This document shows positions 1 through 39,820 of a DNA stretch of 64,000 bases, one piece after another. Origin of the DNA: Escherichia coli. Lineage in GTDB: Bacteria; Pseudomonadota; Gammaproteobacteria; Enterobacterales; Enterobacteriaceae. Position 1 is the first letter of the stretch; the number at the start of each line of letters is the position of its first letter. The translations under genes and the position numbers were made by a program. Under the pieces are notes generated by a model, which saw only the letters and a program-made list of their open reading frames with translations, was not told the origin of the DNA and did not search any database. The DNA is taken from the NCBI RefSeq assembly GCF_024502345.1, contig NZ_JALDNN010000001.1; one strand, given 5' to 3'.

Positions 1-240
1 ATCACTATCACACAGTTCCGGCCCGCTATGAGTGGCATGTCAGTATGCGGTGATGCGCTTAACGGTGACGAGTGGCCATTTACCTGGCGGATAAATGCGC
101 CACAAACAACGATCAAGTATTCGCTTGCTGGCGCGTCCTACTGCGGAGATCCGCTCGCATCGTGGGGCAATAAACAACTGGAGTGTTCAATCAACAAAAT
201 TGCCCCATCCCATCTGAACATCATTTTCAATTATTCATAA
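1..240 (+). CDS. 3' end of a phage structural gene (probably tail fibre), partial; reading frame is open from window start
   Basis: Frame 1 is open from position 1 to the stop at 238-240; sits directly upstream of tail-fibre-like and Tfa genes. Product assignment is by context only. Confidence 0.35.
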   Translation: MTITQFRPAMSGMSVCGDALNGDEWPFTWRINAPQTTIKYSLAGASYCGDPLASWGNKQLECSINKIAPSHLNIIFNYS

Positions 241-291
241 CTGATATTTCCCCCTCTGATTTTATCGCTTAACACTAAGTGAGGATTAACT

Positions 292-924
292 ATGCTCCGA
301 ATCGGGCAAGTCGAAGCCACTGCAACGCAGGATGGCAAATATACTGATGGAAGTGTTGCTGGTGGTATTGCCGCAACGAGGCTGCGGGCAGCAGCGTTTA
401 ATGCCATGCAGGAAGAGTTAGCGCATATCGTAGAGTCAGCAGGATTGGCGCTCGACATTAACGATATGACTCAGGTTTTAAAAGCCATTCAAAAACTCAC
501 ACTGAGCCGTGCAAACCCATTTGCCGATATCAAATCAGATGGTGCAGCGGCGATTTCTACGGCTCTCACAAACCTTGGATTGGGCGAAGCGGCGAAATGT
601 AACGTTGGAACTAGTGCTAACCAGATCCCCGATATGTCGTTTTTCACATATTCAAACGGTGTTTATAGATTCCCCAATGGGCTGATTCTGCAAATATTTA
701 ACAGGGTAACATCAACTACAGATACAACTACAGCATTTACTTTCCCTACGGTTTTTCCTGATTCATGCCACGGCATTTTTTCGACATATAACTCGGGGAC
801 AGCAGGTAACTACTACACGTTCAATAATGTGACTCCTGCGGGTGCAAATATGCAGGCGTTTCTCGGGTCGCCCACACCTACCAAGGGCGGCAGTACTGCA
901 ACAATAGTTGCGTTCGGGAGGTAA
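292..924 (+). CDS. phage tail-fibre-like / receptor-binding-module protein (210 aa), hypothetical
   Basis: ATG at 292 preceded by GAGGA; stop overlaps the start region of the downstream Tfa gene (TAATAATG). Size and position resemble short side-tail-fibre genes that pair with tfa in lambdoid cryptic prophages; called by context, not by recognised motif. Confidence 0.45.
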   Translation: MLRIGQVEATATQDGKYTDGSVAGGIAATRLRAAAFNAMQEELAHIVESAGLALDINDMTQVLKAIQKLTLSRANPFADIKSDGAAAISTALTNLGLGEAAKCNVGTSANQIPDMSFFTYSNGVYRFPNGLILQIFNRVTSTTDTTTAFTFPTVFPDSCHGIFSTYNSGTAGNYYTFNNVTPAGANMQAFLGSPTPTKGGSTATIVAFGR

Positions 925-926
925 TA

Positions 927-1352
927 ATGCAATACGCCTATAGCCAGTCGCAGAATCTGTTTTATGTGCGTGAGTGGGAGCGTGACTACGGGGATTCATG
1001 GCCTCAAGATTGCCTTGATGTATCCGACGAGCAATTCAGAGAGTTCAGTGTTGAGCAAGCACCTGGAAAGGTTCGCTCACCAGGTATTGATGGTCTTCCA
1101 TGCTGGATTGACGTGCCACCGCCAACGCAAGACGAATTAATCGCTATAGCTGCTGCAGAAAAACAGCGACTGATTGCTGCTGCTAACGAATTTATGAATG
1201 GGAAGCAATGGCCCGGTAAGGCGGCAATTGGTCGGCTGAAAGGCGATGAGTTGTCGCAGTACAACTTGTGGCTGGATTATCTCGACGCCCTAGAAGCGGT
1301 CGACACCTCCAGCGCACCAGATATCAACTGGCCTATTCAGCCGGAAGTGTAG
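927..1352 (+). CDS. tfa: phage tail fibre assembly protein (Tfa family)
   Basis: 141-aa product ends ...LDALEAVDTSSAPDINWPIQPEV, matching the conserved Tfa C-terminal motif (lambda Tfa ends ...VDTSTAPDIEWPAVPV). GGGAGG Shine-Dalgarno upstream. Confidence 0.75.
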   Translation: MQYAYSQSQNLFYVREWERDYGDSWPQDCLDVSDEQFREFSVEQAPGKVRSPGIDGLPCWIDVPPPTQDELIAIAAAEKQRLIAAANEFMNGKQWPGKAAIGRLKGDELSQYNLWLDYLDALEAVDTSSAPDINWPIQPEV

Positions 1353-1492
1353 GCCATTCCGGGTCTGCTGTATCAACGTGCATCAGCAGCACCCGGTATT
1401 TCTTTCACTCGCTTAGAGCGGTGGTTTCTTCCTCCGTCGCAATACCTGCATCAACAGCATCCTGACGCCGGTCAATCTCTGAGTCTGCCTGC

Positions 1493-1520
1493 GCTCGTAA
1501 ACCAACCTTTTTTATAACCA
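1493..1520. other. candidate Hin/Gin/Pin-family crossover site (hix/gix-like)
   Basis: CTCGTAAACCAACCTTTTTTATAACC resembles gix (TTCCTGTAAACCGAGGTTTTGGATAA), about 60 bp upstream of the invertase gene. The match is imperfect and no partner site was found in the window. Confidence 0.3.
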
Positions 1521-1576
1521 TCAAAAATCTGGTGATGCTTCGCCGTTTCTCCTGTTTTCATAACAGGAGAAATCCC

Positions 1577-2131
1577 ATGATTTACGGTTATGCCCGAGTA
1601 TCAACAAACCACCAGGACACTGAATTGCAACTAACGGCGCTCAAGTCAGCGGGTTGTGAGAAAATTTTTGAAGAGCATGCCAGCGGGAGGAAATCGAATC
1701 GGCCGGTTCTAAAACGGCTCATCGCCACTATGCAGCCGGGGGATGAACTGGTGGTATGGAAACTAGATCGCCTCGGGCGAAGCATGCGAAATTTAGTGCT
1801 GCTGGTCGACGAACTCCGACAGCGGGGCATTCACTTTAAGAGCCTCACGGACAGCATTGATACATCAAGTCCAATGGGGCGTTTTATATTTCACATCATG
1901 TCAGCGCTGGCGGAAATGGAAAGAGAGTTAATCGTCGAACGCACCCGGGCTGGATTAGCGGCTGCGCGGGAAAAAGGGAGAATAGGTGGCAGACGTCCAA
2001 AATTAACTCCCGAGCAATGGGCACAGGCTGGGAGATTAATATTAAACGGCGTGGATAGAAAACAAGTGGCAATAATTTATGATGTCGCTGTATGCACGCT
2101 TTATAAAAAATTTCCGGTGGGGCAGGCTTAA
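1577..2131 (+). CDS. pin: site-specific DNA invertase, serine recombinase (Pin/Gin/Hin/Cin family)
   Basis: 184-aa product starting MIYGYARVSTNHQDTELQ, with the catalytic Ser in YARVST and a C-terminal HTH; AGGAGA Shine-Dalgarno 7 nt upstream. The longer ORF from 1532 is an in-frame upstream Met. Confidence 0.9.
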   Translation: MIYGYARVSTNHQDTELQLTALKSAGCEKIFEEHASGRKSNRPVLKRLIATMQPGDELVVWKLDRLGRSMRNLVLLVDELRQRGIHFKSLTDSIDTSSPMGRFIFHIMSALAEMERELIVERTRAGLAAAREKGRIGGRRPKLTPEQWAQAGRLILNGVDRKQVAIIYDVAVCTLYKKFPVGQA

Positions 2132-2173
2132 ATGATAAAAGGGCAGCTGCTAGATAGGCTGCCCGTCAAAGTA

Positions 2174-2437
2174 TTATCCATTTTGCCGGACAGTTGGAAA
2201 TTCAGACGTCAGCCACATGTCAGATTCATCAAACATTTCCTCCAGCATACGGTTCAGCTTTTCCCGATCACTTTTGCTGGCATCACTATTTAAGCCGTTC
2301 GCCTGCATCGGCTTTACCTTCACTTCGGCATCAGGAAAAATCTGGTGCACCCGCTTCGTTAGTTCAGCCAGGATGATCTCTCTGGCCCCTTGGAGTCCTT
2401 CAACATTTCGCTTGTCATAAACCAGTTCAACAAACAT
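2174..2437 (-). CDS. dinI: DinI-family DNA-damage-inducible protein (prophage-encoded)
   Basis: 87-aa product MFVELVYDKRNVEGLQGAREIILAELTKRVHQIFPDAEVKVKP...DMWLTSE matches the DinI family in length and sequence; LexA box about 60 bp upstream. Confidence 0.8.
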   Translation of the reverse strand: MFVELVYDKRNVEGLQGAREIILAELTKRVHQIFPDAEVKVKPMQANGLNSDASKSDREKLNRMLEEMFDESDMWLTSEFPTVRQNG

Positions 2438-2495
2438 ACCGATCCTCTCATAAGTGAAAATTGCCTGTGCTTGATCTGTTTTTATAAAAATACTA

Positions 2496-2511
2496 CTGTA
2501 TATGCATACAG
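2496..2511. promoter_or_regulatory. LexA (SOS) box, CTGTATATGCATACAG
   Basis: Perfect CTGT-N8-ACAG palindrome with AT-rich spacer, between the divergent dinI-like gene and the two-gene cassette. A possible sigma70 promoter (TTGATC-17-TACTGT) for the plus-strand cassette ends just upstream of the box. Confidence 0.65.
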
Positions 2512-2536
2512 TCAATAAGCGAGTGAGGGTGCGTTC

Positions 2537-2776
2537 ATGCCTCGTCAACCGGATATTCGTGCTGCTTTTATTGCGGCCATACAGCAAAACCCGAAGGGCT
2601 ATCTCTGCCTGCATACAGACAGATTCATCGCTGAACTGCAGGAGAGGCGCTGGCACTTCAGCCAGGCGGATGCAAATTCATGGATCGAACGATACCAGCC
2701 AGACTTCGCCGATAAGACGACAAACGGAAGTGAGAACCGATACTGGATCCTGCGTAACATGGGGAGGGTTTTCTAA
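2537..2776 (+). CDS. hypothetical small protein (79 aa), first gene of a coupled two-gene cassette
   Basis: ATG with GAGGG Shine-Dalgarno 7 nt upstream; stop overlaps the start of the next ORF (TAATG). Soluble, Trp-rich, no recognisable family. Confidence 0.45.
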   Translation: MPRQPDIRAAFIAAIQQNPKGYLCLHTDRFIAELQERRWHFSQADANSWIERYQPDFADKTTNGSENRYWILRNMGRVF

Positions 2777-3096
2777 TGGGGTTTCCATCGCCAGCCATGG
2801 ATTACCAGGAGCAGCGCATGACAATAGATGTTATCTGTGGTGTAGATAACAACTGCCGGGTTATTGAAACTTCATGCGGCTGGGCCGTTATAAACGTCAG
2901 TCTTAAGCCAGAAGGAGGGGATACGTTGCTGGTTAGCATGGACGGGAGAAACCAGTTCGTGAAGCTAATGGGCCACGCGCTGATCACTCAAGATGGTGAA
3001 GCGATAGAAGGGGAAGCTTTGAATGACGTAACGGTACACGGCGTTCTAACACATACACTTAACCAAGTTAAGGACGATAAATCGCCTGTAATGTAG
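2776..3096 (+). CDS. hypothetical acidic protein (106 aa), second gene of the coupled cassette
   Basis: ATG overlaps the upstream stop by 1 nt; GGGGAGGG Shine-Dalgarno upstream; followed by a hairpin terminator. No recognisable family; alternative in-frame start at 2797 (MDYQEQ). Confidence 0.45.
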   Translation: MGFPSPAMDYQEQRMTIDVICGVDNNCRVIETSCGWAVINVSLKPEGGDTLLVSMDGRNQFVKLMGHALITQDGEAIEGEALNDVTVHGVLTHTLNQVKDDKSPVM

Positions 3097-3161
3097 CGTG
3101 TAAATGTCGGGGGTTATTCCCCCATTTTTCCCCAATGATTCCCCGTACAAATTTCAAACAT

Positions 3162-3190
3162 AAAAAAACCAGCCGTAAGAGGCTGGTTTT
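3162..3190 (-). terminator. rho-independent terminator downstream of proL (probably bidirectional)
   Basis: CCAGCC-GTAAGA-GGCTGG hairpin flanked by an A-run on the plus strand and a T-run on the minus strand, directly 3' of the tRNA and 3' of the plus-strand cassette. Confidence 0.6.
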
Positions 3191-3201
3191 CAATGTGTTT
3201 T

Positions 3202-3278
3202 TGGTCGGCACGAGAGGATTTGAACCTCCGACCCCCGACACCCCATGACGGTGCGCTACCAGGCTGCGCTACGTGCCG
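3202..3278 (-). tRNA. proL: tRNA-Pro (anticodon GGG)
   Basis: Reverse complement reads CGGCACGTAGCGCAGCCTGGTAGCGCACCGTCATGGGGTGTCGGGGGTCGGAGGTTCAAATCCTCTCGTGCCGACCA: 77 nt, cloverleaf-compatible, encoded CCA end. Confidence 0.95.
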
Positions 3279-3352
3279 ACTCGTGGCTGCTAATACTACC
3301 GTTTTCCACACCGATTGCAAGTAAGATATTTCGCTAACTGATTTATAATTAA

Positions 3353-5113
3353 TCAGTTAGCGATAAAACGCTTCTCGTCTGTCAGTACTTGCAATAACAA
3401 ACTTAACTGTGGTTTTTCATCTTTCACTCTTTCACCACGTAAGTTGTAAGTGCGGTATTTACCGTTATTGTTCAGCACCAGCGTCTTTTTCGGAGTGGTA
3501 ATTGCCAGCGTATCGTTATCCGCTGCGGTAACCCAGTAATGACGGCGTTGAGGGTTGAACAAATCCTGACCTTGCGAATATTCGCTGGCAGGTGTGCTGA
3601 CATGTAGCAGGCGTTGCATCAGCGTCGTCATCAGATCGGTATGATCAGTCAGAGCATTAATACGCTGCGCCGGCGTGCCTGGCCAGTGAATCACTAATGG
3701 CACCTGCAGATGACCGTGGGACCAGTCAAAGGTTTCTTCCTCTTCGCTCAGTGGAATACCCCGAGCGGCAGTGATAATCACCACCGTATTGTCCAGTTTG
3801 CCAGAATCACGCAGTGCATTGAGCACACGGTTGATCTGGTCATCGACATTGCCTGCCGCCCGGCTATATTTCCGTGCAAATGCCTGCTGATTGCTGTCGT
3901 CAATGTTAGTACCATTGAAAGAGACCCACGAGAACCAGCGGTTATCTTCTTGTGCGTAGCGTCCCAGCCAGTTGATCCACTGCGTGGCGGTCTGCTCGTC
4001 GGATTGGGTGCGTACGCTCGGCATCGAGAAATCTGACAACAATGCCTGGCGATACAGCGGGCTGGTAAAGCCATCTGATGAGAATAACCCCAGCTGATAG
4101 CCTTGCTGATTAAGCGCAGTAATTAATGCCGCAGGCGTACGGGTCGACAGAATGCCGTCCATATAGCTCGGCGAGATGCCATAGAACAGGCCAAAGATGC
4201 CGTTGTCTGTAGTGTTGCCGGAGCTCATATGGCGCGTGAACGAAATATTTTGCTCAGCAAAACCTGCCAGCGCAGGCATCTGCTTCTCGAAGCGTGAGTA
4301 GTTCAGGCCATCGACAGTAATCAACAGCACATTCTGCCCGGTGCCCATATCGCGATAGCGCAGTTCGCTTAACGGATACTGAACGGAAACGGCGTCTGGA
4401 TTACCTTGCTCAATAAGACGGCGTTGATACTCCTGCGCATCAAGCAGGCCATGCTTCTCAAGAAAACGTCGCGCCGTCATCGGGTACGAAAGCGGCAGGT
4501 TAGCGCGCTGCATGGTGATAGGGCGATAGAAGTTGGCATCGGCCCAGATATACACCACATGCGAGGCGATAAAGGCGATAAATAAGAATGCGGCCAGCGG
4601 GCGCGCGAAGCGTCGACGACGCGTCAGGCTGCGCAGCTTTTGCCAGCTCCACGTCGCAAACACCAGTTCAAGCAATAAAATAACCGGCACGCTGATGAAC
4701 ATCAGCTGCCAGTCGCGCGCCATCTCATTTTCGTCTGGGTTGATAACCAGTTGCCAGACGATGGGATTAAGATGGAGATGGAAACGAGTAAAGACTTCGC
4801 TATCGATCAGTAATAGCGTCATTCCCGCCGTTGCCAGAATGACGGACAAAAACCTCATCAGCCTCTGGGAGCCGACGATAAAGGTCAGCGGGAAGAGGAT
4901 CAGCAAGTAGGTGGCGAACACCAGGAAGCTGAAATGGCCGATAATGCTTACGTAGGAATAAATGCGACCAGCAAGCGTGGTCGGCCAGTCGGCGATAAAC
5001 AGGTAACGGCTGCCAATGACGAGCGAAAGCAGAATATTGAACAGTGCAAACCAGTGCCCCCAACTGACCATCTGGGAGACTTTTTCACGGTAGCGCTGAC
5101 GATGAGTTACCAT
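3353..5113 (-). CDS. yejM: inner-membrane cardiolipin transport / LPS-regulation protein PbgA (YejM)
   Basis: 586-aa ORF recognised as YejM; conserved position upstream of proL. Confidence 0.9.
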   Translation of the reverse strand: MVTHRQRYREKVSQMVSWGHWFALFNILLSLVIGSRYLFIADWPTTLAGRIYSYVSIIGHFSFLVFATYLLILFPLTFIVGSQRLMRFLSVILATAGMTLLLIDSEVFTRFHLHLNPIVWQLVINPDENEMARDWQLMFISVPVILLLELVFATWSWQKLRSLTRRRRFARPLAAFLFIAFIASHVVYIWADANFYRPITMQRANLPLSYPMTARRFLEKHGLLDAQEYQRRLIEQGNPDAVSVQYPLSELRYRDMGTGQNVLLITVDGLNYSRFEKQMPALAGFAEQNISFTRHMSSGNTTDNGIFGLFYGISPSYMDGILSTRTPAALITALNQQGYQLGLFSSDGFTSPLYRQALLSDFSMPSVRTQSDEQTATQWINWLGRYAQEDNRWFSWVSFNGTNIDDSNQQAFARKYSRAAGNVDDQINRVLNALRDSGKLDNTVVIITAARGIPLSEEEETFDWSHGHLQVPLVIHWPGTPAQRINALTDHTDLMTTLMQRLLHVSTPASEYSQGQDLFNPQRRHYWVTAADNDTLAITTPKKTLVLNNNGKYRTYNLRGERVKDEKPQLSLLLQVLTDEKRFIAN

Positions 5114-6686: not shown

Positions 6687-7079
<393 letters not shown>

Positions 7080-28078: not shown

Positions 28079-29770
28079 ATGAAAACGCTGCTGATTATTG
28101 ACGCTAATCTCGGTCAGGCACGCGCCTATATGGCGAAGACCCTGCTGGGCGCGGCGGCGCGAAAAGCAAAACTGGAAATCATCGACAATCCGAACGACGC
28201 AGAAATGGCGATTGTTCTCGGTGATTCCATCCCGAACGACAGCGCGCTGAACGGTAAAAATATCTGGCTGGGCGATATTTCCCGGGCAGTTGCGCACCCT
28301 GAGCTGTTCCTGAGTGAAGCCAAAGGCCATGCGAAACCTTACACTGCGCCGGTCGCTGCGACAGCACCGGTTGCCGCCAGCGGTCCGAAACGCGTAGTTG
28401 CGGTGACTGCTTGCCCGACTGGCGTAGCACACACCTTTATGGCGGCTGAAGCCATTGAAACCGAAGCGAAAAAACGTGGCTGGTGGGTGAAAGTTGAAAC
28501 CCGTGGTTCTGTTGGTGCGGGTAATGCAATCACTCCCGAAGAAGTAGCCGCAGCGGATCTGGTGATTGTGGCGGCAGATATCGAAGTGGATCTGGCGAAA
28601 TTTGCTGGTAAACCGATGTATCGTACCTCTACCGGTCTGGCGCTGAAGAAAACCGCGCAGGAACTGGATAAAGCGGTTGCTGAAGCAACGCCGTATGAAC
28701 CGGCGGGCAAAGCTCAAACGGCGACCTCTGAAGGTAAGAAAGAGAGTGCAGGCGCATACCGTCACTTGCTGACGGGCGTCTCTTACATGCTGCCGATGGT
28801 CGTTGCAGGTGGTCTGTGTATCGCGCTTTCTTTTGCTTTTGGTATCGAAGCGTTTAAAGAGCCGGGTACGTTGGCAGCGGCGCTGATGCAGATTGGTGGT
28901 GGTTCAGCCTTTGCGCTGATGGTGCCGGTACTGGCAGGTTACATTGCCTTCTCCATTGCCGATCGTCCGGGCCTCACGCCGGGTCTGATTGGCGGTATGC
29001 TGGCGGTCAGCACCGGTTCTGGCTTTATTGGCGGTATTATTGCGGGCTTCCTGGCTGGTTACATTGCGAAGTTAATTAGTACGCAACTGAAACTGCCACA
29101 GAGTATGGAGGCGCTGAAACCAATCCTGATCATTCCGCTAATTTCCAGTCTGGTGGTCGGTCTGGCGATGATCTACCTGATCGGTAAACCAGTTGCTGGC
29201 ATTCTCGAAGGGTTGACTCACTGGCTGCAGACCATGGGGACTGCGAATGCGGTTCTGCTGGGGGCGATCCTCGGTGGCATGATGTGTACTGACATGGGCG
29301 GTCCGGTAAATAAAGCAGCGTACGCATTCGGTGTGGGTCTGCTGAGTACTCAAACCTATGGCCCGATGGCGGCGATTATGGCGGCAGGTATGGTGCCACC
29401 GCTGGCAATGGGCCTGGCAACAATGGTGGCGCGTCGCAAATTCGACAAAGCGCAGCAGGAAGGTGGCAAAGCCGCTCTGGTACTGGGACTGTGCTTTATT
29501 TCGGAAGGTGCAATTCCGTTTGCTGCTCGTGATCCGATGCGTGTGCTGCCGTGCTGTATCGTGGGTGGGGCGCTGACTGGCGCAATCTCAATGGCGATTG
29601 GTGCGAAACTGATGGCACCGCACGGTGGTCTGTTTGTTCTGCTGATCCCTGGCGCTATTACGCCGGTACTGGGTTACCTGGTAGCAATTATTGCCGGTAC
29701 GCTGGTGGCGGGTTTGGCCTATGCCTTCCTGAAACGTCCGGAAGTGGACGCAGTAGCGAAAGCCGCGTAA
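28079..29770 (+). CDS. fruA: fructose PTS EIIB'BC component FruA
   Basis: 563-aa product recognised as FruA. Confidence 0.95.
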   Translation: MKTLLIIDANLGQARAYMAKTLLGAAARKAKLEIIDNPNDAEMAIVLGDSIPNDSALNGKNIWLGDISRAVAHPELFLSEAKGHAKPYTAPVAATAPVAASGPKRVVAVTACPTGVAHTFMAAEAIETEAKKRGWWVKVETRGSVGAGNAITPEEVAAADLVIVAADIEVDLAKFAGKPMYRTSTGLALKKTAQELDKAVAEATPYEPAGKAQTATSEGKKESAGAYRHLLTGVSYMLPMVVAGGLCIALSFAFGIEAFKEPGTLAAALMQIGGGSAFALMVPVLAGYIAFSIADRPGLTPGLIGGMLAVSTGSGFIGGIIAGFLAGYIAKLISTQLKLPQSMEALKPILIIPLISSLVVGLAMIYLIGKPVAGILEGLTHWLQTMGTANAVLLGAILGGMMCTDMGGPVNKAAYAFGVGLLSTQTYGPMAAIMAAGMVPPLAMGLATMVARRKFDKAQQEGGKAALVLGLCFISEGAIPFAARDPMRVLPCCIVGGALTGAISMAIGAKLMAPHGGLFVLLIPGAITPVLGYLVAIIAGTLVAGLAYAFLKRPEVDAVAKAA

Positions 29771-29925
29771 TAAAAGGTGTGTTACAGGGCAGAAATTTAC
29801 TGCCCTGTATCATTGGATGAGCGCAAAGAGAATGACCGGTTTGTGAATGTAATTTTATGAATTTAAATGGTTTTATCTTTCAGTAGAAACCTGAAACGTT
29901 CATCAAATACTAAGGTTATTTCCTC

Positions 29926-29954
29926 AAGGGCAGATTCTTTTCTGCCCTTTTTTA
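29926..29954 (+). terminator. rho-independent terminator of fruBKA
   Basis: AAGGGCAGA-TTCTT-TCTGCCCTT hairpin followed by TTTTT. Confidence 0.8.
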
Positions 29955-30193
29955 GTGTTCATGTTCTGTGCATCCCGTCACAAATTCCTCGCTTTTGTAA
30001 TTCAGGCATTTAATCGCATTTTGTGAGCCTGCTCAAATCTGCCCATTTTGCCTCTCTGGCGGTAATTTACTTTACGTAAAACATGCATACTATGAGCACA
30101 TGTTTAAATATGAACACATGTTTAAACCGTCTTTGCAGTATCTATATTCTTGTGGATTGACAGGGTTGGTAATTTTTTACCAGAGGACGTGCT

Positions 30194-31135
30194 ATGCGCG
30201 AAAAGGATTATGTCGTAATTATAGGTTCGGCGAATATTGATGTCGCCGGATATTCACATGAATCATTAAATTATGCGGATTCAAATCCAGGTAAAATAAA
30301 ATTTACGCCTGGTGGGGTAGGGCGAAATATTGCACAAAACCTGGCGTTGCTGGGTAACAAAGCCTGGCTACTGAGCGCAGTAGGCAGTGATTTTTATGGT
30401 CAATCGCTGCTAACGCAAACCAATCAATCTGGCGTTTATGTCGATAAATGCCTGATTGTGCCGGGAGAAAATACGTCGAGCTATTTATCATTACTCAATA
30501 ATACCGGTGAAATGCTGGTTGCTATAAATGACATGAATATTAGCAACGCTATTACAGCTGAATATCTCGCACAGCACCGTGAATTTATTCAGAGGGCAAA
30601 GGTCATTGTCGCGGACTGTAATATCAGTGAAGAGGCACTGGCATGGATTCTGGATAATGCTGCCAACGTACCCGTATTTGTCGATCCGGTTTCAGCGTGG
30701 AAATGTGTCAAAGTGCGCGACCGTCTAAATCAGATCCACACTCTCAAGCCAAACCGCCTTGAAGCGGAAACCCTGAGTGGGATTGCGCTGTCAGGGCGTG
30801 AAGATGTGGCAAAAGTTGCTGCCTGGTTCCATCAACATGGCCTGAACCGACTGGTATTGAGCATGGGCGGCGATGGCGTTTATTACAGTGATATCAGCGG
30901 TGAAAGTGGCTGGTCTGCCCCGATCAAAACCAATGTTATTAATGTTACCGGAGCGGGCGATGCCATGATGGCGGGACTTGCTTCGTGTTGGGTAGACGGA
31001 ATGCCGTTTGCCGAATCTGTTCGTTTCGCACAGGGATGTTCGTCAATGGCGCTCTCCTGTGAATACACCAATAACCCCGATTTATCGATTGCCAACGTTA
31101 TATCGTTAGTGGAGAACGCAGAATGTCTGAATTAA
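30194..31135 (+). CDS. psuK: pseudouridine kinase PsuK (YeiC), PfkB family
   Basis: 313-aa product recognised as YeiC/PsuK. Confidence 0.9.
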   Translation: MREKDYVVIIGSANIDVAGYSHESLNYADSNPGKIKFTPGGVGRNIAQNLALLGNKAWLLSAVGSDFYGQSLLTQTNQSGVYVDKCLIVPGENTSSYLSLLNNTGEMLVAINDMNISNAITAEYLAQHREFIQRAKVIVADCNISEEALAWILDNAANVPVFVDPVSAWKCVKVRDRLNQIHTLKPNRLEAETLSGIALSGREDVAKVAAWFHQHGLNRLVLSMGGDGVYYSDISGESGWSAPIKTNVINVTGAGDAMMAGLASCWVDGMPFAESVRFAQGCSSMALSCEYTNNPDLSIANVISLVENAECLN

Positions 31136-32061
31136 AAATTTCCCCTGAATTATTACAAATTTCCCCGGAAGTGCAGGACGCTTTAAAAAACAAAAAACCG
31201 GTTGTGGCGCTGGAATCGACCATTATTTCTCACGGGATGCCGTTCCCACAAAATGCCCAGACCGCAATTGAAGTAGAAGAAACTATTCGTAAACAGGGCG
31301 CAGTACCTGCCACTATCGCAATTATTGGCGGCGTGATGAAAGTGGGTTTAAGCAAAGAAGAAATTGAATTACTGGGTCGTGAAGGGCATAACGTGACCAA
31401 AGTTAGTCGTCGCGATTTACCTTTTGTTGTTGCCGCCGGAAAAAATGGCGCAACCACTGTGGCTTCAACGATGATTATTGCGGCGCTTGCCGGAATTAAA
31501 GTATTTGCCACCGGGGGAATTGGTGGTGTGCATCGCGGGGCGGAACATACCTTCGATATTTCTGCCGATTTGCAAGAACTGGCAAATACTAATGTCACCG
31601 TTGTTTGTGCCGGGGCGAAATCTATTCTCGATTTAGGATTAACCACTGAGTATTTAGAAACCTTCGGTGTGCCGTTAATTGGCTATCAGACTAAAGCGCT
31701 GCCTGCGTTTTTCTGCCGTACCAGCTCGTTTGACGTCAGCATTCGTCTCGACAGCGCCAGTGAAATTGCCCGTGCAATGGCGGTGAAATGGCAAAGCGGG
31801 CTGAACGGTGGCCTCGTGGTAGCGAACCCGATCCCGGAACAGTTTGCGATGCCGGAGGAATCTATCAATGCAGCCATAGATCAAGCCGTCGCCGAAGCCG
31901 AAGAGCAGGGCGTTATTGGTAAAGAAAGTACACCGTTCCTGCTGGCGCGCGTTGCTGAGCTGACCGGCGGTGACAGCCTGAAATCCAATATCCAGCTGGT
32001 GTTCAACAACGCCATTCTGGCGAGTGAAATTGCCAAAGAATACCAGCATCTCGCGGGTTAA
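31123..32061 (+). CDS. psuG: pseudouridine-5'-phosphate glycosidase PsuG (YeiN)
   Basis: 312-aa product recognised as YeiN/PsuG; overlaps the psuK 3' end. Confidence 0.9.
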   Translation: MSELKISPELLQISPEVQDALKNKKPVVALESTIISHGMPFPQNAQTAIEVEETIRKQGAVPATIAIIGGVMKVGLSKEEIELLGREGHNVTKVSRRDLPFVVAAGKNGATTVASTMIIAALAGIKVFATGGIGGVHRGAEHTFDISADLQELANTNVTVVCAGAKSILDLGLTTEYLETFGVPLIGYQTKALPAFFCRTSSFDVSIRLDSASEIARAMAVKWQSGLNGGLVVANPIPEQFAMPEESINAAIDQAVAEAEEQGVIGKESTPFLLARVAELTGGDSLKSNIQLVFNNAILASEIAKEYQHLAG

Positions 32062-32088
32062 TTTCTGACGGGCAGAAAGCCGTCGCCC
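32062..32088 (+). promoter_or_regulatory. conserved leader motif upstream of psuT (alternative hairpins)
   Basis: TTTCTGACGGGCAGAAAGCCGTCGCCC; near-identical copy upstream of nupX; can fold as TTTCTG/CAGAAA, GACGG/CCGTC or GGGC/GCCC stems. Confidence 0.4.
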
Positions 32089-32154
32089 GTACTCATCAAG
32101 CATACCAAAACCTGGCGCTGACGCCGGGTTTACTGGCATGAAGGGAAAATCATT

Positions 32155-33405
32155 ATGGATATAATGAGAAGTGTTGTGGGGATGGTGGTGTTACTGGCAA
32201 TAGCATTTCTGTTGTCAGTGAATAAAAAGAGCATCAGTTTGCGCACGGTTGGAGCCGCACTGCTGCTGCAAATCGCTATTGGTGGCATCATGCTCTACTT
32301 CCCACCGGGAAAGTGGGCAGTAGAACAGGCGGCATTAGGCGTTCATAAAGTGATGTCTTACAGTGATGCCGGTAGCGCCTTCATTTTTGGTTCGCTGGTT
32401 GGGCCGAAAATGGATGTCCTGTTTGACGGTGCGGGTTTTATCTTCGCCTTTCGCGTACTTCCGGCGATTATTTTCGTTACTGCGCTCATCAGTCTGCTGT
32501 ACTACATTGGCGTGATGGGGCTGCTGATTCGCATCCTTGGCAGCATTTTCCAGAAAGCTCTTAACATCAGCAAAATCGAATCTTTTGTCGCAGTCACAAC
32601 TATTTTCCTCGGGCAAAATGAGATCCCGGCGATCGTTAAACCGTTTATCGATCGCATGAATCGCAACGAGTTGTTTACCGCAATTTGTAGCGGGATGGCG
32701 TCCATTGCTGGTTCGATGATGATTGGTTATGCTGGAATGGGCGTACCAATTGACTACCTGTTAGCGGCATCGCTGATGGCGATCCCAGGTGGTATTTTGT
32801 TTGCACGTATTCTTAGCCCGGCCACCGAGCCTTCGCAGGTCACATTTGAAAATCTGTCGTTCAGCGAAACGCCGCCAAAAAGCTTTATCGAAGCGGCGGC
32901 GAGCGGTGCGATGACCGGGCTGAAAATCGCCGCTGGTGTAGCGACGGTGGTAATGGCGTTTGTCGCAATTATTGCGCTGATCAACGGCATTATCGGCGGA
33001 ATTGGTGGCTGGTTTGGTTTCGCCAATGCCTCTCTGGAAAGTATTTTTGGCTATGTGCTGGCACCGCTGGCGTGGATCATGGGTGTGGACTGGAGTGATG
33101 CCAATCTTGCGGGTAGCCTGATTGGGCAGAAACTGGCGATTAACGAATTCGTCGCTTACCTGAGTTTCTCCCCATACCTGCAAACGGGCGGCACGCTGGA
33201 AGTGAAAACCATTGCGATTATCTCCTTTGCGCTTTGTGGTTTTGCTAACTTTGGTTCTATCGGTGTTGTCGTTGGCGCATTTTCGGCTATTTCGCCAAAA
33301 CGTGCTCCAGAAATCGCCCAGCTTGGTTTACGGGCGCTGGCAGCAGCAACGCTTTCCAACCTGATGAGTGCGACTATTGCCGGGTTCTTTATTGGTCTGG
33401 CGTAA
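32155..33405 (+). CDS. psuT: CNT-family nucleoside transporter PsuT (YeiM)
   Basis: 416-aa multi-TM product recognised as YeiM/PsuT; paralog of NupX. Confidence 0.9.
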   Translation: MDIMRSVVGMVVLLAIAFLLSVNKKSISLRTVGAALLLQIAIGGIMLYFPPGKWAVEQAALGVHKVMSYSDAGSAFIFGSLVGPKMDVLFDGAGFIFAFRVLPAIIFVTALISLLYYIGVMGLLIRILGSIFQKALNISKIESFVAVTTIFLGQNEIPAIVKPFIDRMNRNELFTAICSGMASIAGSMMIGYAGMGVPIDYLLAASLMAIPGGILFARILSPATEPSQVTFENLSFSETPPKSFIEAAASGAMTGLKIAAGVATVVMAFVAIIALINGIIGGIGGWFGFANASLESIFGYVLAPLAWIMGVDWSDANLAGSLIGQKLAINEFVAYLSFSPYLQTGGTLEVKTIAIISFALCGFANFGSIGVVVGAFSAISPKRAPEIAQLGLRALAAATLSNLMSATIAGFFIGLA

Positions 33406-33415
33406 TGCTCGATTT

Positions 33416-33457
33416 GTAGACCGGATAAAACGTATTAAGCGTTGCATCCGGCAATCG
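33416..33457. repeat. REP-like palindromic element downstream of psuT
   Basis: GTAGACCGGATAAAACGTATTAAGCGTTGCATCCGGCAATCG (CCGGAT...ATCCGG arms). Confidence 0.5.
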
Positions 33458-33475
33458 CGCTATTGCAAATAATTT

Positions 33476-34135
33476 TTACTGCATCATCCCGGAGAATTTA
33501 TTCTCCGGGTCCATCTCCAGCGCCAGTCCTGACAACTGCTTTCTGTTTTTAATGAGATACCCTTTCTTGCTTTTAGTTAATAAACCGTCGTGAATGAATT
33601 GCGCGAGAACATATAAAAGATGTCGATAAGAAACGCCTAAATACTCTGCCGCTTGCGTATGCTTTTCGTGATAAAGATCACCTTCCTGCGAGAGTAATAT
33701 AAAAGCTGCCAGGCGATTAACTAACGGAAATGATTGATTCTGAGTTAAAGAAACAATATTACGATAATTTTTATGACTTAAGGTGACGCAGAGTTTTCGT
33801 AAAAATAGCGTGTCGTTTAATAACAGCGGGCGGTAATGTTTCATAGAGAGCGCAAGGCACCAACACTCTTCAATAGCCTGCACCGCACGCGGTTCATGGT
33901 CTTTGTCGATTAACTCAATCTCACCAATAAAACAGGGGGCGGCAAAGAAATCGATCAGCGACACGCGACCATTAGCAAGCGTGGCGTAAAGCCTGGCGCG
34001 GCCTCGCGTCAGATAAAACAGCCAGGACGGCTGTTGCCCTTCCTGCACAATGTAGTCACGCGCTAAAAAATGAAACAGCCGCGTATCGGCTGAAACATCC
34101 GTTAAAAAGCAATCCTTAAACGCGGATTCACTCAT
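33476..34135 (-). CDS. yeiL: Crp/Fnr-family transcriptional regulator YeiL
   Basis: Cyclic-nucleotide-binding-like domain plus C-terminal HTH; start taken at MSESAFKD (219 aa), the ORF extends to 34174. Confidence 0.8.
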
Positions 34136-34303
34136 CAATTGCAGCTTAAGATCATTATTGTGGATTTCTTTCACGATGTTTATCCGCTGTGAGATTTCTC
34201 ATATTTAGCATACGTACGCTGTTGTTAAGATTCAATCATCGGCCCGGTCGAATTTTCTTTGCTGTAGAAAAAATAACGCAACTGGAAACAGAGGAAATAA
34301 ACA

Positions 34304-35245
34304 ATGGAAAAGAGAAAAATTATTCTGGATTGTGATCCGGGTCATGATGATGCTATTGCAATGATGATGGCAGCGAAACATCCGGCGATTGATTTATTAG
34401 GCATCACTATTGTAGCGGGTAATCAGACGCTTGATAAAACATTAATTAATGGCCTGAATGTTTGCCAGAAACTGGAGATTAATGTTCCGGTTTATGCGGG
34501 GATGCCGCAACCCATTATGCGTCAACAAATCGTTGCCGATAATATTCACGGTGAAACCGGACTGGATGGCCCGGTATTCGAGCCGCTGACCCGCCAGGCA
34601 GAAAGTACCCACGCGGTGAAATACATCATTGATACCCTGATGGCAAGCGATGGCGATATCACTCTGGTGCCGGTTGGTCCGCTTTCAAATATCGCGGTGG
34701 CAATGCGTATGCAACCCGCGATCCTGCCCAAAATCCGTGAAATTGTGCTAATGGGCGGCGCTTACGGTACAGGCAACTTCACGCCATCTGCCGAGTTCAA
34801 CATCTTTGCTGACCCGGAAGCCGCACGCGTGGTGTTCACCTCCGGCGTTCCATTAGTGATGATGGGCCTCGATCTTACCAACCAGACCGTTTGCACCCCG
34901 GACGTAATTGCTCGGATGGAAAGGGCAGGCGGCCCTGCCGGAGAGCTGTTCAGCGACATCATGAACTTCACTCTCAAAACGCAGTTCGAAAACTACGGCC
35001 TGGCTGGCGGCCCGGTGCACGACGCCACCTGCATCGGTTATCTGATTAACCCTGATGGCATTAAAACCCAGGAGATGTACGTCGAAGTGGACGTCAACAG
35101 TGGCCCTTGCTATGGGCGTACCGTCTGCGACGAGCTGGGCGTTCTTGGCAAGCCCGCTAATACCAAAGTCGGCATCACTATTGATACCGACTGGTTCTGG
35201 GGCTTAGTCGAAGAGTGCGTGCGCGGCTACATCAAAACCCATTAA
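34304..35245 (+). CDS. rihB: pyrimidine-specific ribonucleoside hydrolase RihB
   Basis: 313-aa product with N-terminal DCDPGHDD inosine-uridine hydrolase motif. Confidence 0.9.
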
Positions 35246-35292
35246 GTGTTGATAACAAGCCGGGTCAGTATCGCAAGATCCAAGCCCGGCTA

Positions 35293-35319
35293 TTTCTGAT
35301 GGGCAGAAAGCCGTCGCCC
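35293..35319 (+). promoter_or_regulatory. conserved leader motif upstream of nupX (paralogous to the psuT leader)
   Basis: TTTCTGATGGGCAGAAAGCCGTCGCCC, 26/27 identical to the psuT leader; the single difference keeps pairing as a G-U wobble. Confidence 0.4.
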
Positions 35320-35344
35320 AATATGACATGAAGAGATAATAACT

Positions 35345-36595
35345 ATGGATGTCATGAGAAGTGTTCTGGGAATGGTGGTATTGCTGACGATTGCGTTTTT
35401 ACTGTCAGTAAACAAGAAGAAGATCAGCCTGCGTACCGTTGGCGCGGCGTTAGTGTTACAGGTCGTGATTGGCGGGATTATGCTTTGGTTACCGCCAGGG
35501 TGTTGGGTCGCTGAAAAAGTCGCTTTTGGCGTGCATAAAGTGATGGCGTACAGCGACGCGGGTAGCGCATTTATCTTCGGTTCGCTGGTCGGGCCGAAAA
35601 TGGACACGCTGTTTGATGGCGCAGGATTTATCTTTGGTTTCAGAGTGTTACCGGCAATTATCTTCGTCACCGCGCTGGTGAGTATTCTCTATTACATCGG
35701 TGTGATGGGGATCTTAATTCGCATTCTCGGCGGTATATTCCAGAAAGCATTAAATATCAGCAAGATCGAGTCATTCGTCGCGGTCACTACCATTTTCCTC
35801 GGGCAAAACGAAATTCCGGCAATCGTCAAACCCTTTATCGATCGTCTGAATCGCAATGAATTATTTACAGCGATTTGTAGTGGCATGGCCTCGATTGCTG
35901 GTTCGACAATGATTGGTTACGCCGCACTGGGCGTACCTGTGGAATATTTGCTGGCGGCATCGTTAATGGCGATCCCAGGCGGAATCTTGTTTGCCCGCCT
36001 GTTAAGCCCGGCTACGGAATCTTCGCAGGTTTCTTTTAATAACCTCTCTTTCACCGAAACACCGCCAAAAAGCATTATTGAAGCCGCCGCGACAGGGGCA
36101 ATGACCGGGCTGAAAATCGCCGCAGGTGTGGCGACAGTAGTGATGGCATTTGTCGCCATCATTGCGTTAATTAACGGTATTATCGGCGGCGTTGGCGGCT
36201 GGTTTGGTTTTGAACATGCCTCGCTGGAGTCCATTTTAGGTTATCTGCTGGCCCCACTGGCGTGGGTAATGGGTGTTGACTGGAGTGATGCGAATCTTGC
36301 CGGGAGTTTGATTGGACAGAAACTGGCAATAAATGAATTTGTCGCTTATCTCAATTTCTCACCCTATCTGCAAACGGCTGGCACTCTGGATGCTAAAACC
36401 GTGGCGATTATTTCCTTCGCGTTGTGCGGTTTCGCTAACTTTGGTTCTATCGGGGTGGTGGTGGGGGCGTTTTCTGCGGTTGCACCACACCGTGCGCCGG
36501 AAATCGCCCAGCTTGGTTTACGCGCGCTGGCGGCGGCGACACTTTCTAACCTGATGAGTGCCACCATTGCCGGGTTCTTTATTGGTTTAGCGTAG
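35345..36595 (+). CDS. nupX: CNT-family nucleoside permease NupX
   Basis: 416-aa multi-TM product recognised as NupX. Confidence 0.9.
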   Translation: MDVMRSVLGMVVLLTIAFLLSVNKKKISLRTVGAALVLQVVIGGIMLWLPPGCWVAEKVAFGVHKVMAYSDAGSAFIFGSLVGPKMDTLFDGAGFIFGFRVLPAIIFVTALVSILYYIGVMGILIRILGGIFQKALNISKIESFVAVTTIFLGQNEIPAIVKPFIDRLNRNELFTAICSGMASIAGSTMIGYAALGVPVEYLLAASLMAIPGGILFARLLSPATESSQVSFNNLSFTETPPKSIIEAAATGAMTGLKIAAGVATVVMAFVAIIALINGIIGGVGGWFGFEHASLESILGYLLAPLAWVMGVDWSDANLAGSLIGQKLAINEFVAYLNFSPYLQTAGTLDAKTVAIISFALCGFANFGSIGVVVGAFSAVAPHRAPEIAQLGLRALAAATLSNLMSATIAGFFIGLA

Positions 36596-36607
36596 TGTGC
36601 GATTTAT

Positions 36608-36646
36608 GAGCCGGATAAGATGCGGTCAAGCGTCGAATCCGGCAAC
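36608..36646. repeat. REP-like palindromic element downstream of nupX
   Basis: GAGCCGGATAAGATGCGGTCAAGCGTCGAATCCGGCAAC. Confidence 0.5.
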
Positions 36647-36650
36647 ATTG

Positions 36651-37739
36651 TTACACCATTGGCACTAATGAAAGCGCGTTATCGGCAGACAGGGTAGGGT
36701 TGTTTAAGCTGCCGCTGGCGCGTGAAATTGCCGCGCAGGCTACCGCAAAACGGGCGCTGTCGCGGAAACTGTATCCTTCAAGAAAGCTATATACCAGGCC
36801 CGCCATAAAACCATCGTCAGCACCAAAACTGTCTACTGTCGTATGCGCTGGCGCGGTCAGCAAAAATTGTTCTCCATCCTTTTCGCTGCAATAAACTGAC
36901 TCATCGGGCAAATAAACAAACAGTTGCTGAACACCTTGCTGATGCAACGCATTCACTGCAGCATTACGGTCAGCATCGCTGGTGATCGCCTGTCCCCATA
37001 AAATTTCCAGCTCCGGTAAAGTGGGTTTCAGGGTGTGAATATGCGCCAGCCAGTGTTTGATTTTGCCCGCTTTGAATTCTGAAACGGTATCGACAAACAC
37101 CGGGATCTCATCAGCGAGGGTAAAGACCCATTCCAGCGCCTCGGCTGTCAGGTTGCAATCAGCCAGTACCACGCCCGCATGACGAAGTAAATCGCGCGAC
37201 CCGTTCAGTAGTTGCGGTGTCAACTGTTCCAGCAGATGGGTATCGTTAATCGCCAGCACGGTTTGATCGTCTCGATTGGCAATTGCCAGATACGTCGATG
37301 TGCTTTGACCATGCAAACGAACGCAGCCGGAGACATTCACGCCGGCGCGGCGCGTTTCTTCCAGGAGCATTTCGCCATAAAAGTCATCGCCAATCACTGA
37401 AAGCAAATGGACGTCACGGCCTAACAGCGCCAGATTGTGGGCGATATTGCGTCCAACGCCGCCTGCCGAGCAATGAATTGTACCGGGATGAGAAGCCGCT
37501 TGCGGGTAATGGATATCCGCCATCCCGCGAATATCCATATTGATTGTCCCCACCACTACGCAGTATTCCTGCTCGGTGAGAATGTAACCTTTGCCTTTAA
37601 TCCGGCCTTTGCGCATTAAATCCATAATATGCGCCGCAACGCGCGAACGACTGATTTGCAGCATGTTCGCAATTTCGTTCTGCTGAATCAGCGGGTTACG
37701 CCGTAAAATTGCAAGGATCTCCTTTTCCCGGTTATTCAT
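36651..37739 (-). CDS. yeiI: PfkB-family kinase with N-terminal HTH domain, YeiI
   Basis: 362-aa product; N-terminal winged HTH plus ribokinase-like domain paralogous to PsuK. Confidence 0.85.
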   Translation of the reverse strand: MNNREKEILAILRRNPLIQQNEIANMLQISRSRVAAHIMDLMRKGRIKGKGYILTEQEYCVVVGTINMDIRGMADIHYPQAASHPGTIHCSAGGVGRNIAHNLALLGRDVHLLSVIGDDFYGEMLLEETRRAGVNVSGCVRLHGQSTSTYLAIANRDDQTVLAINDTHLLEQLTPQLLNGSRDLLRHAGVVLADCNLTAEALEWVFTLADEIPVFVDTVSEFKAGKIKHWLAHIHTLKPTLPELEILWGQAITSDADRNAAVNALHQQGVQQLFVYLPDESVYCSEKDGEQFLLTAPAHTTVDSFGADDGFMAGLVYSFLEGYSFRDSARFAVACAAISRASGSLNNPTLSADNALSLVPMV

Positions 37740-37741
37740 CT

Positions 37742-38599
37742 TCAGGCTACCGCTTTTTCAGTTTGTTGCGCTTTCAGCCAGGCGATCTCTTCTGCCCAGA
37801 TATCCGGGTTGATGGTTTCAAGGATCAGCGGAATGCCGTCGAAACGGTCGTCCTGCATGATCCAGCGGAACGCATCATGACCGATATTGCCTTCACCGAG
37901 GCTATGATGGCGGTCAACGCGGCTGCCAAAGGTGCTTTTCGCATCGTTAAGGTGCATCCCGCGCAGATACTTAAAGCCGACAATACGGGCAAAATCAGCG
38001 AACGTTTTCTCGCATTCGGCTGGAGTACGCAAATCATACCCGGCAGCGAAAGCATGGCAGGTATCAATGCAGACGCCGACGCGGGATTTATCTTCCACGC
38101 CGTCGATAATCGCCGCGAGATGTTCGAATTTAAACCCTAAGTTACTGCCCTGACCGGCGGTGTTTTCAATCACCGCGGTCACACCTTGAGTTTTATCCAG
38201 CGCAATGTTGATGGATTCGGCAATACGCGCAAGGCAATCCTCTTCTGAAATCTGCATCAGATGGCTGCCAGGGTGGAAGTTGAGCAAAGAAAGCCCCAGC
38301 TGTTCGCAACGCTGCATTTCATCTATAAAGGCATCGCGCGATTTTTCCAGAGCTTCAGTGACCGGATGTCCGAGGTTAATCAGATAACTGTCGTGGGGAA
38401 GAATTTGCGCCGATGTGTAGTGATATTTTTCACAGGCGGCTTTGAATTCATCGATGGTTTGCGTCGTGAGCGGTGCGGCACGCCACTGACGTTGGTTTTT
38501 GGTGAACAAGGCAAACGCGGTTGCGTCGATTTCGGCGGCGCGAATTGCGGCATTTGCCAGACCGCCAGCAGCACTAACGTGCGCTCCAATGTATTTCAT
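37742..38599 (-). CDS. nfo: endonuclease IV (AP endonuclease)
   Basis: 285-aa product [14 protein letters not shown]... recognised as Nfo. Confidence 0.95.
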
Positions 38600-38672
38600 G
38601 CGAGGACTCCTGTTAAACCCGCTGGAGGAAAACGGTAATGATAGCGGGTTAACAGGAGCAAGATGTAGTGGT

Positions 38673-39722
38673 TTATGCGATGACGCTTTGAATCACATAG
38701 TTAATCGCACCACCACCAACAATCAGCCAGGCAAACAGAACCAGTGCCATCAGCAGAGGTTTCGCCCCGGCTTTTTTCAGCGCGCTGACGTGAGTGGTCA
38801 GACCCAGCGCCGCCATCGCCATTGCCAGCAGGAAGGTATCCAGCGTTACCAGCATGTTCACCACGCTCTGCGGTAACAGGTGGAACGAGTTAAAGATGGC
38901 AACTACGATGAACAAGATGGCAAACCACGGAATAGTGATTTTGCTTTTCTCGCCGCTGTTCGCCCCAGACAGCTGTTTAACACGCGCCGCCAGCAGGATG
39001 AGGAACGGAGCCAGCATCATCACGCGCAGCATTTTGGAAATAACTGCTGCGTTTTCCGCATCCGGGCTGATGGCATGACCTGCCGCCACCACCTGCGCCA
39101 CTTCGTGCACAGTAGAACCAATGTAGATACCGAAAGTTTCCGGACTAAACCATTGAGACATCAGCGGATATATCGCCGGGTAGAGGAAAATCGCGATGGT
39201 CCCGAAGATAACAACGGTTGCAACAGCCACGGTTACTTTACTGGCTTCCGCTTTCACTACCGGCTCAGTCGCCAGTACCGCGGCAGCACCACAGATACTG
39301 CTACCGGCACCGATCAACCAGCTGGTGTGCTTATCCAGACCAAACACTTTCTGCCCCAGGAAGCAAGCCAGCAGGAAGGTACTGGACAGCGTCAACACGT
39401 CAATGATGATCCCACTGATACCGACATCGGCAATTTGCGAGAACGTCAGACGGAAGCCATAAAGAATGATACCCAGACGTAATAAATATTGCTTGGCAAA
39501 CAGCACACCACCGTCACAGCTTTTCCAGATGTGCGGATAGATGGTGTTGCCTAAAACCATCCCCAACAAGATTGCGAGGGTGAGGGCACTAAACCCGGCA
39601 CCCGCAACCGCGGGAATGGAACCACCCCACAGGGCGACCCCGGTGATAACTGCACTCAGGGCTAACCCCGGAATAAAATGCCACAGTGTACGATGTTGTT
39701 TCTGTAAGGTGATATTCGTCAT
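38673..39722 (-). CDS. yeiH: UPF0324 inner membrane protein YeiH
   Basis: 349-aa multi-TM product recognised as YeiH. Confidence 0.85.
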
Positions 39723-39820
39723 AACCCTCTCCTTTAACCGGGCATAAGGTTACGACTAACTGGTTTAAAAATAAAATTGATTATATATTTATAATTAATC
39801 TTTATAAGTGGTAAGCGACT

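Follow-up and report, generated by a model that had tools for sequence, protein, structure and literature searches.

What kind of element ends against an intact tRNA gene with its tail fibre side rather than with its integrase? The question is raised by the first 3.2 kb of a 64,000-nucleotide stretch of Escherichia coli DNA (assembly GCF_024502345.1, contig NZ_JALDNN010000001.1), the whole of which is called the window here. Positions 1 to 3197 contain only phage genes, and these abut an intact proL gene (3202-3278, minus strand). An initial annotation, made from the letters alone, regarded this arrangement as atypical for a phage that targets a tRNA gene and offered three explanations, namely that the integrase is at the far end or elsewhere, that the element is a cryptic remnant, or that the tRNA is not the real attachment site. 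On the basis of the gene content, the attachment core, the relations among attP, attL and attR in related prophages and free phages, and the empty site, we conclude with a probability of about 0.9 that a mosaic temperate prophage of the lambdoid kind, with a contractile-tail module of the Mu/e14 type, has been integrated by site-specific recombination into the 3′ part of proL and has its attR junction at positions 1-3247.

The junction at proL

The window start cuts into the prophage, so that its left part lies outside the window. The phage gene identities in positions 1-3096 are based on PHROG profile matches; all seven open reading frames (ORFs) in this interval are open and full length, and there was a PHROG match for each of them. 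The view that phage genes take the place of chromosomal genes upstream of proL, in the form of an accessory-gene-rich prophage right arm terminating at the tRNA gene, is thus borne out. The single tRNA of the window was identified by ARAGORN as tRNA-Pro(GGG) at 3202-3278 on the minus strand, in agreement with the Rfam tRNA model (54.9 bits), and it is identical at 77 of 77 positions to the allele of a strain with an empty site. To the right of proL are yejM, yejL, yejK, rplY and radD, and the sequence is collinear with a reference E. coli chromosome from position 3160 on. The features of the junction are as follows.

3117-3144, plus strand: three TTCCCC motifs (starts at 3117, 3128 and 3139, exactly 11 bp apart), candidate integrase arm-type sites
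3164-3191, unstranded: phage-supplied bidirectional terminator hairpin, with terminator-like matches on both strands
3198-3247, unstranded: att core, 50 bp, equal to proL nucleotides 32-77 plus 4 downstream bases; sequence TTTTTGGTCGGCACGAGAGGATTTGAACCTCCGACCCCCGACACCCCATG
3202-3278, minus strand: proL, tRNA-Pro(GGG), intact; the 5′ 31 nt are chromosomal and the remainder lies inside the att core

The att core begins one base ahead of the anticodon loop, takes in the rest of the tRNA and stops four bases past its 3′ end. The boundary between phage and host is somewhere within this 50-bp block of identity (3198-3247) and cannot be placed at 3202. Because the identity block begins at the anticodon loop, the alignment suggests that strand exchange may take place there, which would put the element in what is reportedly the anticodon-loop class among the sublocations of tRNA integration that Williams is said to have described in 2002.

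Attachment sites in related prophages and free phages

The closest relatives found at proL were the prophages of the genomes ECONIH4 and SZQ1. The SZQ1 sequence matches window positions 1499-1761 and 2012-3400 at 98-99% identity, and that of ECONIH4 matches positions 1-589 at 99.7% and 1748-3400 at 88%. When window positions 3050-3330 were used as the query, the core was found again without a mismatch close downstream of yejO, both in ECONIH4 (L003 12404-12453) and in SZQ1 (L004 7531-7580). The direct repeat of the proL 3′ end that had been predicted for the other prophage boundary is therefore present, in these two relatives. The copies are 45.6 kb apart in ECONIH4 and 46.8 kb apart in SZQ1, and the order in both is yejO, core copy, (helix-turn-helix protein, ImmA), int, early, lysis, head, tail, fibre, invertase, DinI, orf79, the ORF for a protein of 106 amino acids (aa), core and proL. 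Leftwards from the early genes, both prophages thus close with a gene for a 393-aa integrase and the helix-turn-helix/ImmA pair, followed by yejO and narP. The ECONIH4 integrase has the Pfam domains Arm-DNA-bind_1 (E 4.9e-6), a SAM-like core-binding domain and a Phage_integrase catalytic domain (E 1e-5). The morphogenesis module of SZQ1 is of the lambda-type siphovirus kind, and that of ECONIH4 is a Mu-type contractile-tail module as at the start of the window. The prophage of the window strain presumably has the same left end, with int and a core copy, as these relatives.

Three records in the phage collection have this end: Eeyore (PP925821), Flotzy (PP925827) and Phi06_2987 S (KM389287). 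Their matches to the window stop exactly at position 3247, the edge of the core, and their integrases are 99.5-100% identical to that of ECONIH4 (99.5-99.7% for Eeyore and Flotzy). The order in the free phages is the DinI-like gene, orf79, the 106-aa ORF, the terminator, the core, about 150 bp and then int on the opposite strand. The core is exact in the attP of Flotzy and matches at 49 of 50 positions in that of Eeyore. In an alignment of six sequences, which included the window, ECONIH4, SZQ1, Eeyore and Flotzy, the core was common to all six and the Campbell relationship held base for base: the left arm of attP equals the attR arm of the window and ECONIH4, and the right arm of attP equals the attL arm of ECONIH4 and SZQ1. 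No paper on phages Eeyore or Flotzy was found in the literature.

What the free phages and the two prophages have in common with the window is the att core, the TTCCCC arm, the terminator and the module of DinI-like gene, orf79 and 106-aa ORF, at 96-98% identity from about 1740, 1950 or 2210 to 3247. Between ECONIH4 and the window, the Mu-type baseplate and the constant region of the fibre gene are shared as well (99.7%). The window differs from these relatives in that it joins an ECONIH4-type tail module to an SZQ1-type att-proximal module, with another fibre cassette, and Flotzy differs in having no invertase. As a separate observation, a gene pair encoding a helix-turn-helix protein and an ImmA/IrrE metallopeptidase is located between attL and int in ECONIH4 (L003 12751-13502) and SZQ1 (L004 7878-8767), whereas the free phages Eeyore and Flotzy lack this pair despite near-identical integrases and att arms.

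The TTCCCC motifs are kept in the attP of Eeyore, which has a fourth copy in the other arm, against a background of 0.05 per 100 bp, and their spacing and conservation point to arm-type binding sites of the integrase. The hairpin at 3164-3191 is predicted to terminate both proL (minus strand) and the orf79/106-aa operon (plus strand). The original chromosomal terminator of proL is a different hairpin, and it stays next to yejO in the relatives. Differential retro-regulation of the int mRNA, as in lambda sib, was considered and rejected, because the tRNA half and terminator follow int in phage and prophage alike.

Similar sequences were also seen in Salmonella phage Gifsy-2 (L038 2501-2624; NC_010393 44211-44334), in which an unannotated relic downstream of sseI combines TTCCCC motifs with a terminator hairpin and roughly 40 nt from a tRNA-Pro 3′ end, with 81.6% identity to window positions 3114-3236. 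The relic has the appearance of an att site of the proL type that has become fossilized within another prophage.

Position of the integrase after integration

The following sequence of events would account for these relations. In the phage attP, tRNA-Pro nucleotides 32-77 are duplicated and lead into a terminator that belongs to the phage, and a lambda-type tyrosine integrase would recombine attP with the chromosome within the 50-bp identity, such that proL is rebuilt unchanged. The original 3′ half of the tRNA, together with the original terminator, would be pushed to the other end of the prophage, beside yejO. In attP, the tRNA half is directed away from int. Therefore, the arm beyond the 3′ end of this half would come to lie beside the intact proL, bringing with it the terminator, the 106-aa ORF, orf79, the DinI-like gene, the invertase and the fibre, and the integrase would be placed at the far end, about 46 kb away beside the displaced tRNA fragment.

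Of the explanations first offered, a far-end location of the integrase is the one that all of the examined relatives bear out. The word atypical was an overstatement, since the geometry follows the polarity of the tRNA half in attP and is shared at proL by about 114 complete genomes. The junction in the window is an ordinary end of a tRNA-integrated lambdoid prophage, and a new mosaic at a known site.

Use of proL among complete genomes

Occupancy of proL was surveyed in 5,426 complete E. coli genomes. The reconstructed empty site yejO-proL-yejM was covered to at least 80% in 3,784 of them. The genome with the closest backbone, O125ac C 236-04A, is 99.5% identical over yejM-radD and has the order narP-yejO-proL-yejM with nothing inserted. 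These findings agree with the statement in the initial annotation that K-12 has yejO and narP beyond proL. A window-type junction was present in 11 genomes, and in 103 others a different lambdoid prophage (the strain DDG206 type) has its DinI-like end against proL. In 448 genomes a small satellite-like element is present with its integrase directly adjoining proL. Therefore, an end other than the integrase end faces proL in the roughly 114 genomes mentioned above, or about a fifth of the occupied sites.

The proL gene has been named as a prophage site in Shiga toxin-producing E. coli O121:H19 (PMC8767318). In a survey of 1,273 integrases adjoining tRNA genes, the tRNA preceded int in more than 92% (PMC2951348), a figure from a survey that is blind to integrases beside a tRNA fragment; it was therefore reasonable to expect int beside the tRNA. 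The satellite-like element, as seen in O111:H8 strain 8234 (L035 1-9079), encodes an integrase, an Icd-like inhibitor, a RepA-family helicase, a small terminase subunit and a major capsid protein, and in this predicted gene content it resembles the capsid-forming phage-inducible islands.

Elements of at least two unrelated kinds use proL, in opposite geometries, and the gene is the attB of a lambda-type integrase common to the isolated phages Eeyore and Flotzy. A missing integrase beside a tRNA is no evidence against integration at that tRNA, and programs for finding islands or prophages that expect int beside the intact tRNA would mis-call prophages of the window type. Beyond annotation, in which the prophage boundary is now fixed to the 50-bp core at 3198-3247, the result matters little.

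Genes and features of the prophage end

The features in positions 1-3096 are listed below.

1-240, plus strand: C-terminal 79 codons of a baseplate wedge protein of the Mu Gp48/YmfQ type, truncated at position 1 of the window (PHROG 203, 'baseplate wedge subunit', E 3.5e-27)
292-924, plus strand: tail fibre gene, 210 aa (PHROG 2557 and 1396, E 1e-59 and 2e-30)
563-588, unstranded: candidate crossover site of a Din-family invertase, left, CTCACAAACC TT GGATTGGGCGAAGC, read by eye and unscored
927-1352, plus strand: Tfa, tail fibre assembly chaperone, 141 aa (PHROG 188, E 7e-53; Pfam Caudo_TAP)
1345-1500, minus strand: second tfa remnant, inverted, a C-terminal fragment with an in-frame stop (minus-strand translation)
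1496-1521, unstranded: right-hand candidate crossover site of the invertase, close upstream of its gene, CGTAAACC AA CCTTTTTTATAACC, read by eye and unscored
1577-2131, plus strand: serine DNA invertase of the Pin/Gin type, 184 aa (PHROG 125, 'DNA invertase', E 3e-88)
2174-2437, minus strand: DinI-like protein, 87 aa (PHROG 189, E 4.5e-21)
2494-2512, unstranded: LexA (SOS) box TACTGTATATGCATACAGT, in the divergent promoter region between the dinI-like gene and orf79
2537-2776, plus strand: orf79, conserved phage protein, function unknown (PHROG 3893, phrog_3893, E 1.6e-41)
2776-3096, plus strand: 106-aa protein, labelled 'UmuD-like' (PHROG 3469, phrog_3469, E 1e-47)

In the proL prophage of ECONIH4, to which positions 1-589 are 99.7% identical, the gene corresponding to 1-240 is annotated as belonging to the YmfQ family. 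The fibre gene consists of a constant N-terminal part, which extends to about position 575, and an exchangeable C-terminal part; the ECONIH4 match ends at 589, and matches to unrelated phages begin at 559-570. The exact Tfa protein occurs in P2-like, P1-like, Mu-tail and lambda-like contexts. At the position of the inverted tfa remnant, a 45-aa Caudo_TAP fragment is called in one relative (L018). Pfam Resolvase and HTH_7 domains were found on a protein that is identical to the window invertase, a serine recombinase with a C-terminal helix-turn-helix encoded next to fibre genes.

The two candidate 26-bp crossover sites coincide with homology breakpoints, with the homology of the cassette stopping at 1501-1511. 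The ECONIH4 counterpart of the right site, at the equal position, is TTCTCCCAAACCAACGTTTTTGATAA, and the left site presumably resembles the gix, cix and hix sites. A repeat search of the window did not pick up the candidate sites, which are too degenerate for it. Two opposed cassettes of fibre C terminus and Tfa were not found between them; what is present is a single working cassette and the inverted tfa′ fragment with its stop. Therefore, inversion of the segment from about 560 to 1521 would be predicted to turn the fibre off rather than exchange it, silencing the fibre without alternation between two host ranges. The short layout with one cassette recurs in L020, L021 and L023, and the cassette itself (about 560-1510) is found at 98-99% identity in P2-like, P1-like, Mu-tail and lambda-like phages.

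Pfam PF06183 was found on the 87-88-aa genes of relatives at the position of the DinI-like gene. The DinI-like protein itself scored 37.9 bits with the NCBIfam DinI equivalog model, below its cut-off of 111 bits, and it is therefore a DinI-like paralogue and not the chromosomal DinI. The LexA box TACTGTATATGCATACAGT is the only match to TACTGT-N8-ACAGT in the 64 kb, with 0.01 expected by chance, and it is overlapped by a promoter-like site on the minus strand (2515-2487). The product of orf79 had no NCBIfam match.

The 106-aa protein starts with GFPSPAMDYQEQR, which matches UmuD residues 25-37, just past the UmuD cleavage site. The resemblance to the N terminus of UmuD′/HumD is confined to the first 22 to 44 residues or so, with GFPSPA-DY-EQR as the only shared motif. 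The possibility that this ORF encodes a true UmuD′ or HumD was ruled out: the NCBIfam HumD model gave 33.6 bits, over residues 1-22 only, in comparison to a cut-off of 120 bits; no Pfam domain was found on the protein, and hence no S24 domain was detected; and the best match in the PDB was UmuD residues 25-49 with an E value of 0.06. The 'UmuD-like' label of the PHROG family is not to be taken as family membership.

Mosaic origin of the prophage end

In the prophage end, sequences of at least three lineages are combined: positions 1-589 resemble ECONIH4, the fibre/Tfa cassette occupies about 560-1510, and positions 1737-3247 resemble SZQ1 and L030. One joint of the mosaic is inside the invertase gene, where 1499-1761 matches one lineage and 1737-3400 matches another. 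Neither a complete genome nor a phage record covers the whole 3.2 kb. The exact 106-aa protein was found in many proL prophages, none of which bears the fibre cassette of the window, and the exact invertase protein was found only in prophages at ssrA, in the vicinity of uidR or next to a CP4-57-like island. A short-read contig of 14.6 kb (L022), which encodes the exact Tfa protein, is 99.8% identical to window positions 1-1510 and ends at the invertase site; to the left it continues for at least 9 kb through an uninterrupted Mu-type module of baseplate, tape-measure, tube and sheath genes.

Alternative explanations

Several points weigh against the interpretation of the window end as the attR junction of a temperate prophage. 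Its own left boundary, its integrase and its second core copy lie outside the window. Because the end is a mosaic of at least three lineages, the left half of this prophage need not resemble that of ECONIH4 or SZQ1. Neither a complete E. coli genome nor a phage record covers at least 80% of window positions 1-3400, and the exact fibre protein was not on record in the assembly collection. Furthermore, no integration or excision experiments on Eeyore, Flotzy or proL prophages were found in the literature.

The alternative that survives best, although we consider it unlikely, is that the element is a cryptic remnant, of which the right arm alone survives beside proL after loss of the integrase end by deletion or rearrangement. 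The window starts inside the prophage and shows nothing further left, and degeneration has already reached the invertible fibre segment, which retains one cassette and a stop-bearing tfa′ fragment. In the ECONIH4 copy, orf79 is interrupted by a stop codon and a methyltransferase gene is frameshifted; these pseudogenes show that decay does occur in this prophage family. However, none of the seven ORFs in 1-3096 is interrupted or shortened, the two relatives with full sequences are complete prophages of about 46 kb that include int, and the contig that is 99.8% identical to positions 1-1510 has an intact tail module over at least 9 kb to the left. Because the tail module in that contig is intact and the window ORFs are all open, a complete prophage is favoured for the window strain.

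A second alternative, which we regard as very improbable, is that two resident prophages recombined homologously, an e14-like tail module from another place being joined within the shared invertase gene to a proL prophage already present, to give a hybrid with its left part derived from another integration site, which would imply a chromosomal inversion or translocation. The mosaic joint does lie within the invertase gene (about 1737-1767), identical invertase and near-identical DinI genes are present in prophages at ssrA and near uidR, and many genomes have a prophage near 2.6 Mb that matches window positions 1-1767 with 99% identity. Nevertheless, the ECONIH4 tail module, which is 99.7% identical over 1-589, is located in a normal, complete proL prophage, and therefore no rearrangement is needed; the chromosome to the right is collinear with a reference, and mosaicism through exchange between phages is the norm among lambdoid phages.

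Finally, attachment elsewhere than in the tRNA, by a secondary rearrangement or by integration at a neighbouring non-tRNA sequence, would explain why the integrase does not adjoin the tRNA, but it can be dismissed because the attP of the free phages contains the 46-nt 3′ half of the tRNA in a 50-bp segment between the 106-aa ORF and int, this segment is duplicated exactly at both prophage ends, and similarity to the empty site, which sets in around 3150-3160 within terminator-like sequence 3′ of proL, becomes an exact shared block only from the core on.

Accessory module and the remainder of the window

The module of DinI-like gene, orf79 and 106-aa ORF, with an identical 106-aa protein, was also observed at prophage ends at ssrA (L029), at a displaced icd fragment (L031) and at a DUF444/PrkA gene pair (L032). 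In several assemblies the identical invertase and the neighbouring DinI gene are located against the 3′ end of ssrA, and they were also seen near a uidR/uidA-like region (L007-L014). The accessory module thus remains att-proximal while the specificity of integration varies. We raise as a tentative and rather doubtful proposal that the att-proximal trio, together with the LexA box, is a portable SOS-controlled cassette, carried beside attP by phages with a minimum of four integration sites (proL, ssrA, icd and DUF444/PrkA), in which the 106-aa protein might not be a passive accessory but a mimic of the UmuD′ N terminus or an SOS-triggered regulator of RecA/Pol V or of prophage induction.

In the chromosomal part of the window, identity to the closest backbone genome was 98.8% over positions 3160-29743 and 94.6% over 30165-41674. 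The unmatched gap of about 420 bp between them (29743-30165) corresponds to the fruA-psuK intergenic region of that genome, and the drop in identity around it is probably a chromosomal recombination boundary, unrelated to the prophage. Rfam matches to naRNA4 (CssrE) at 52747-52824 and to the L25 ribosomal-protein leader upstream of rplY at 6993-7018 are ordinary chromosomal features.

Comparison with known systems

The fibre segment is like those of e14, Mu and P1, with the invertases Pin, Gin and Cin, in that a Pin-type serine invertase is encoded directly downstream of the fibre/Tfa cassette and that candidate 26-bp sites are found at the boundary of the constant and variable fibre parts and upstream of the invertase. 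It differs from them in having one functional cassette, the alternative being reduced to the tfa′ fragment.

The attachment region resembles that of lambda and HK022 in the order of accessory region, attP and int, with int transcribed towards attP, in the Arm-DNA-binding, core-binding and catalytic domains of the integrase, and in the location of int and the tail/accessory end at opposite ends of the prophage after integration. The integrase is, however, only about 25% identical to Int of the HK022/lambda type, and whereas the core of lambda is short and intergenic, the attB of this phage group is inside a tRNA gene and shares a 50-bp identity block with the phage.

As for P4, Sf6/HK620/KplE1 (argW) and the O111:H8 element, the last of which also uses proL, integration takes place in the 3′ part of a tRNA gene and leaves that gene regenerated. 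In those elements int is directly downstream of the intact tRNA, whereas the phages of the window type have the opposite polarity of the tRNA half relative to int in attP, and their int is found beside the displaced fragment.

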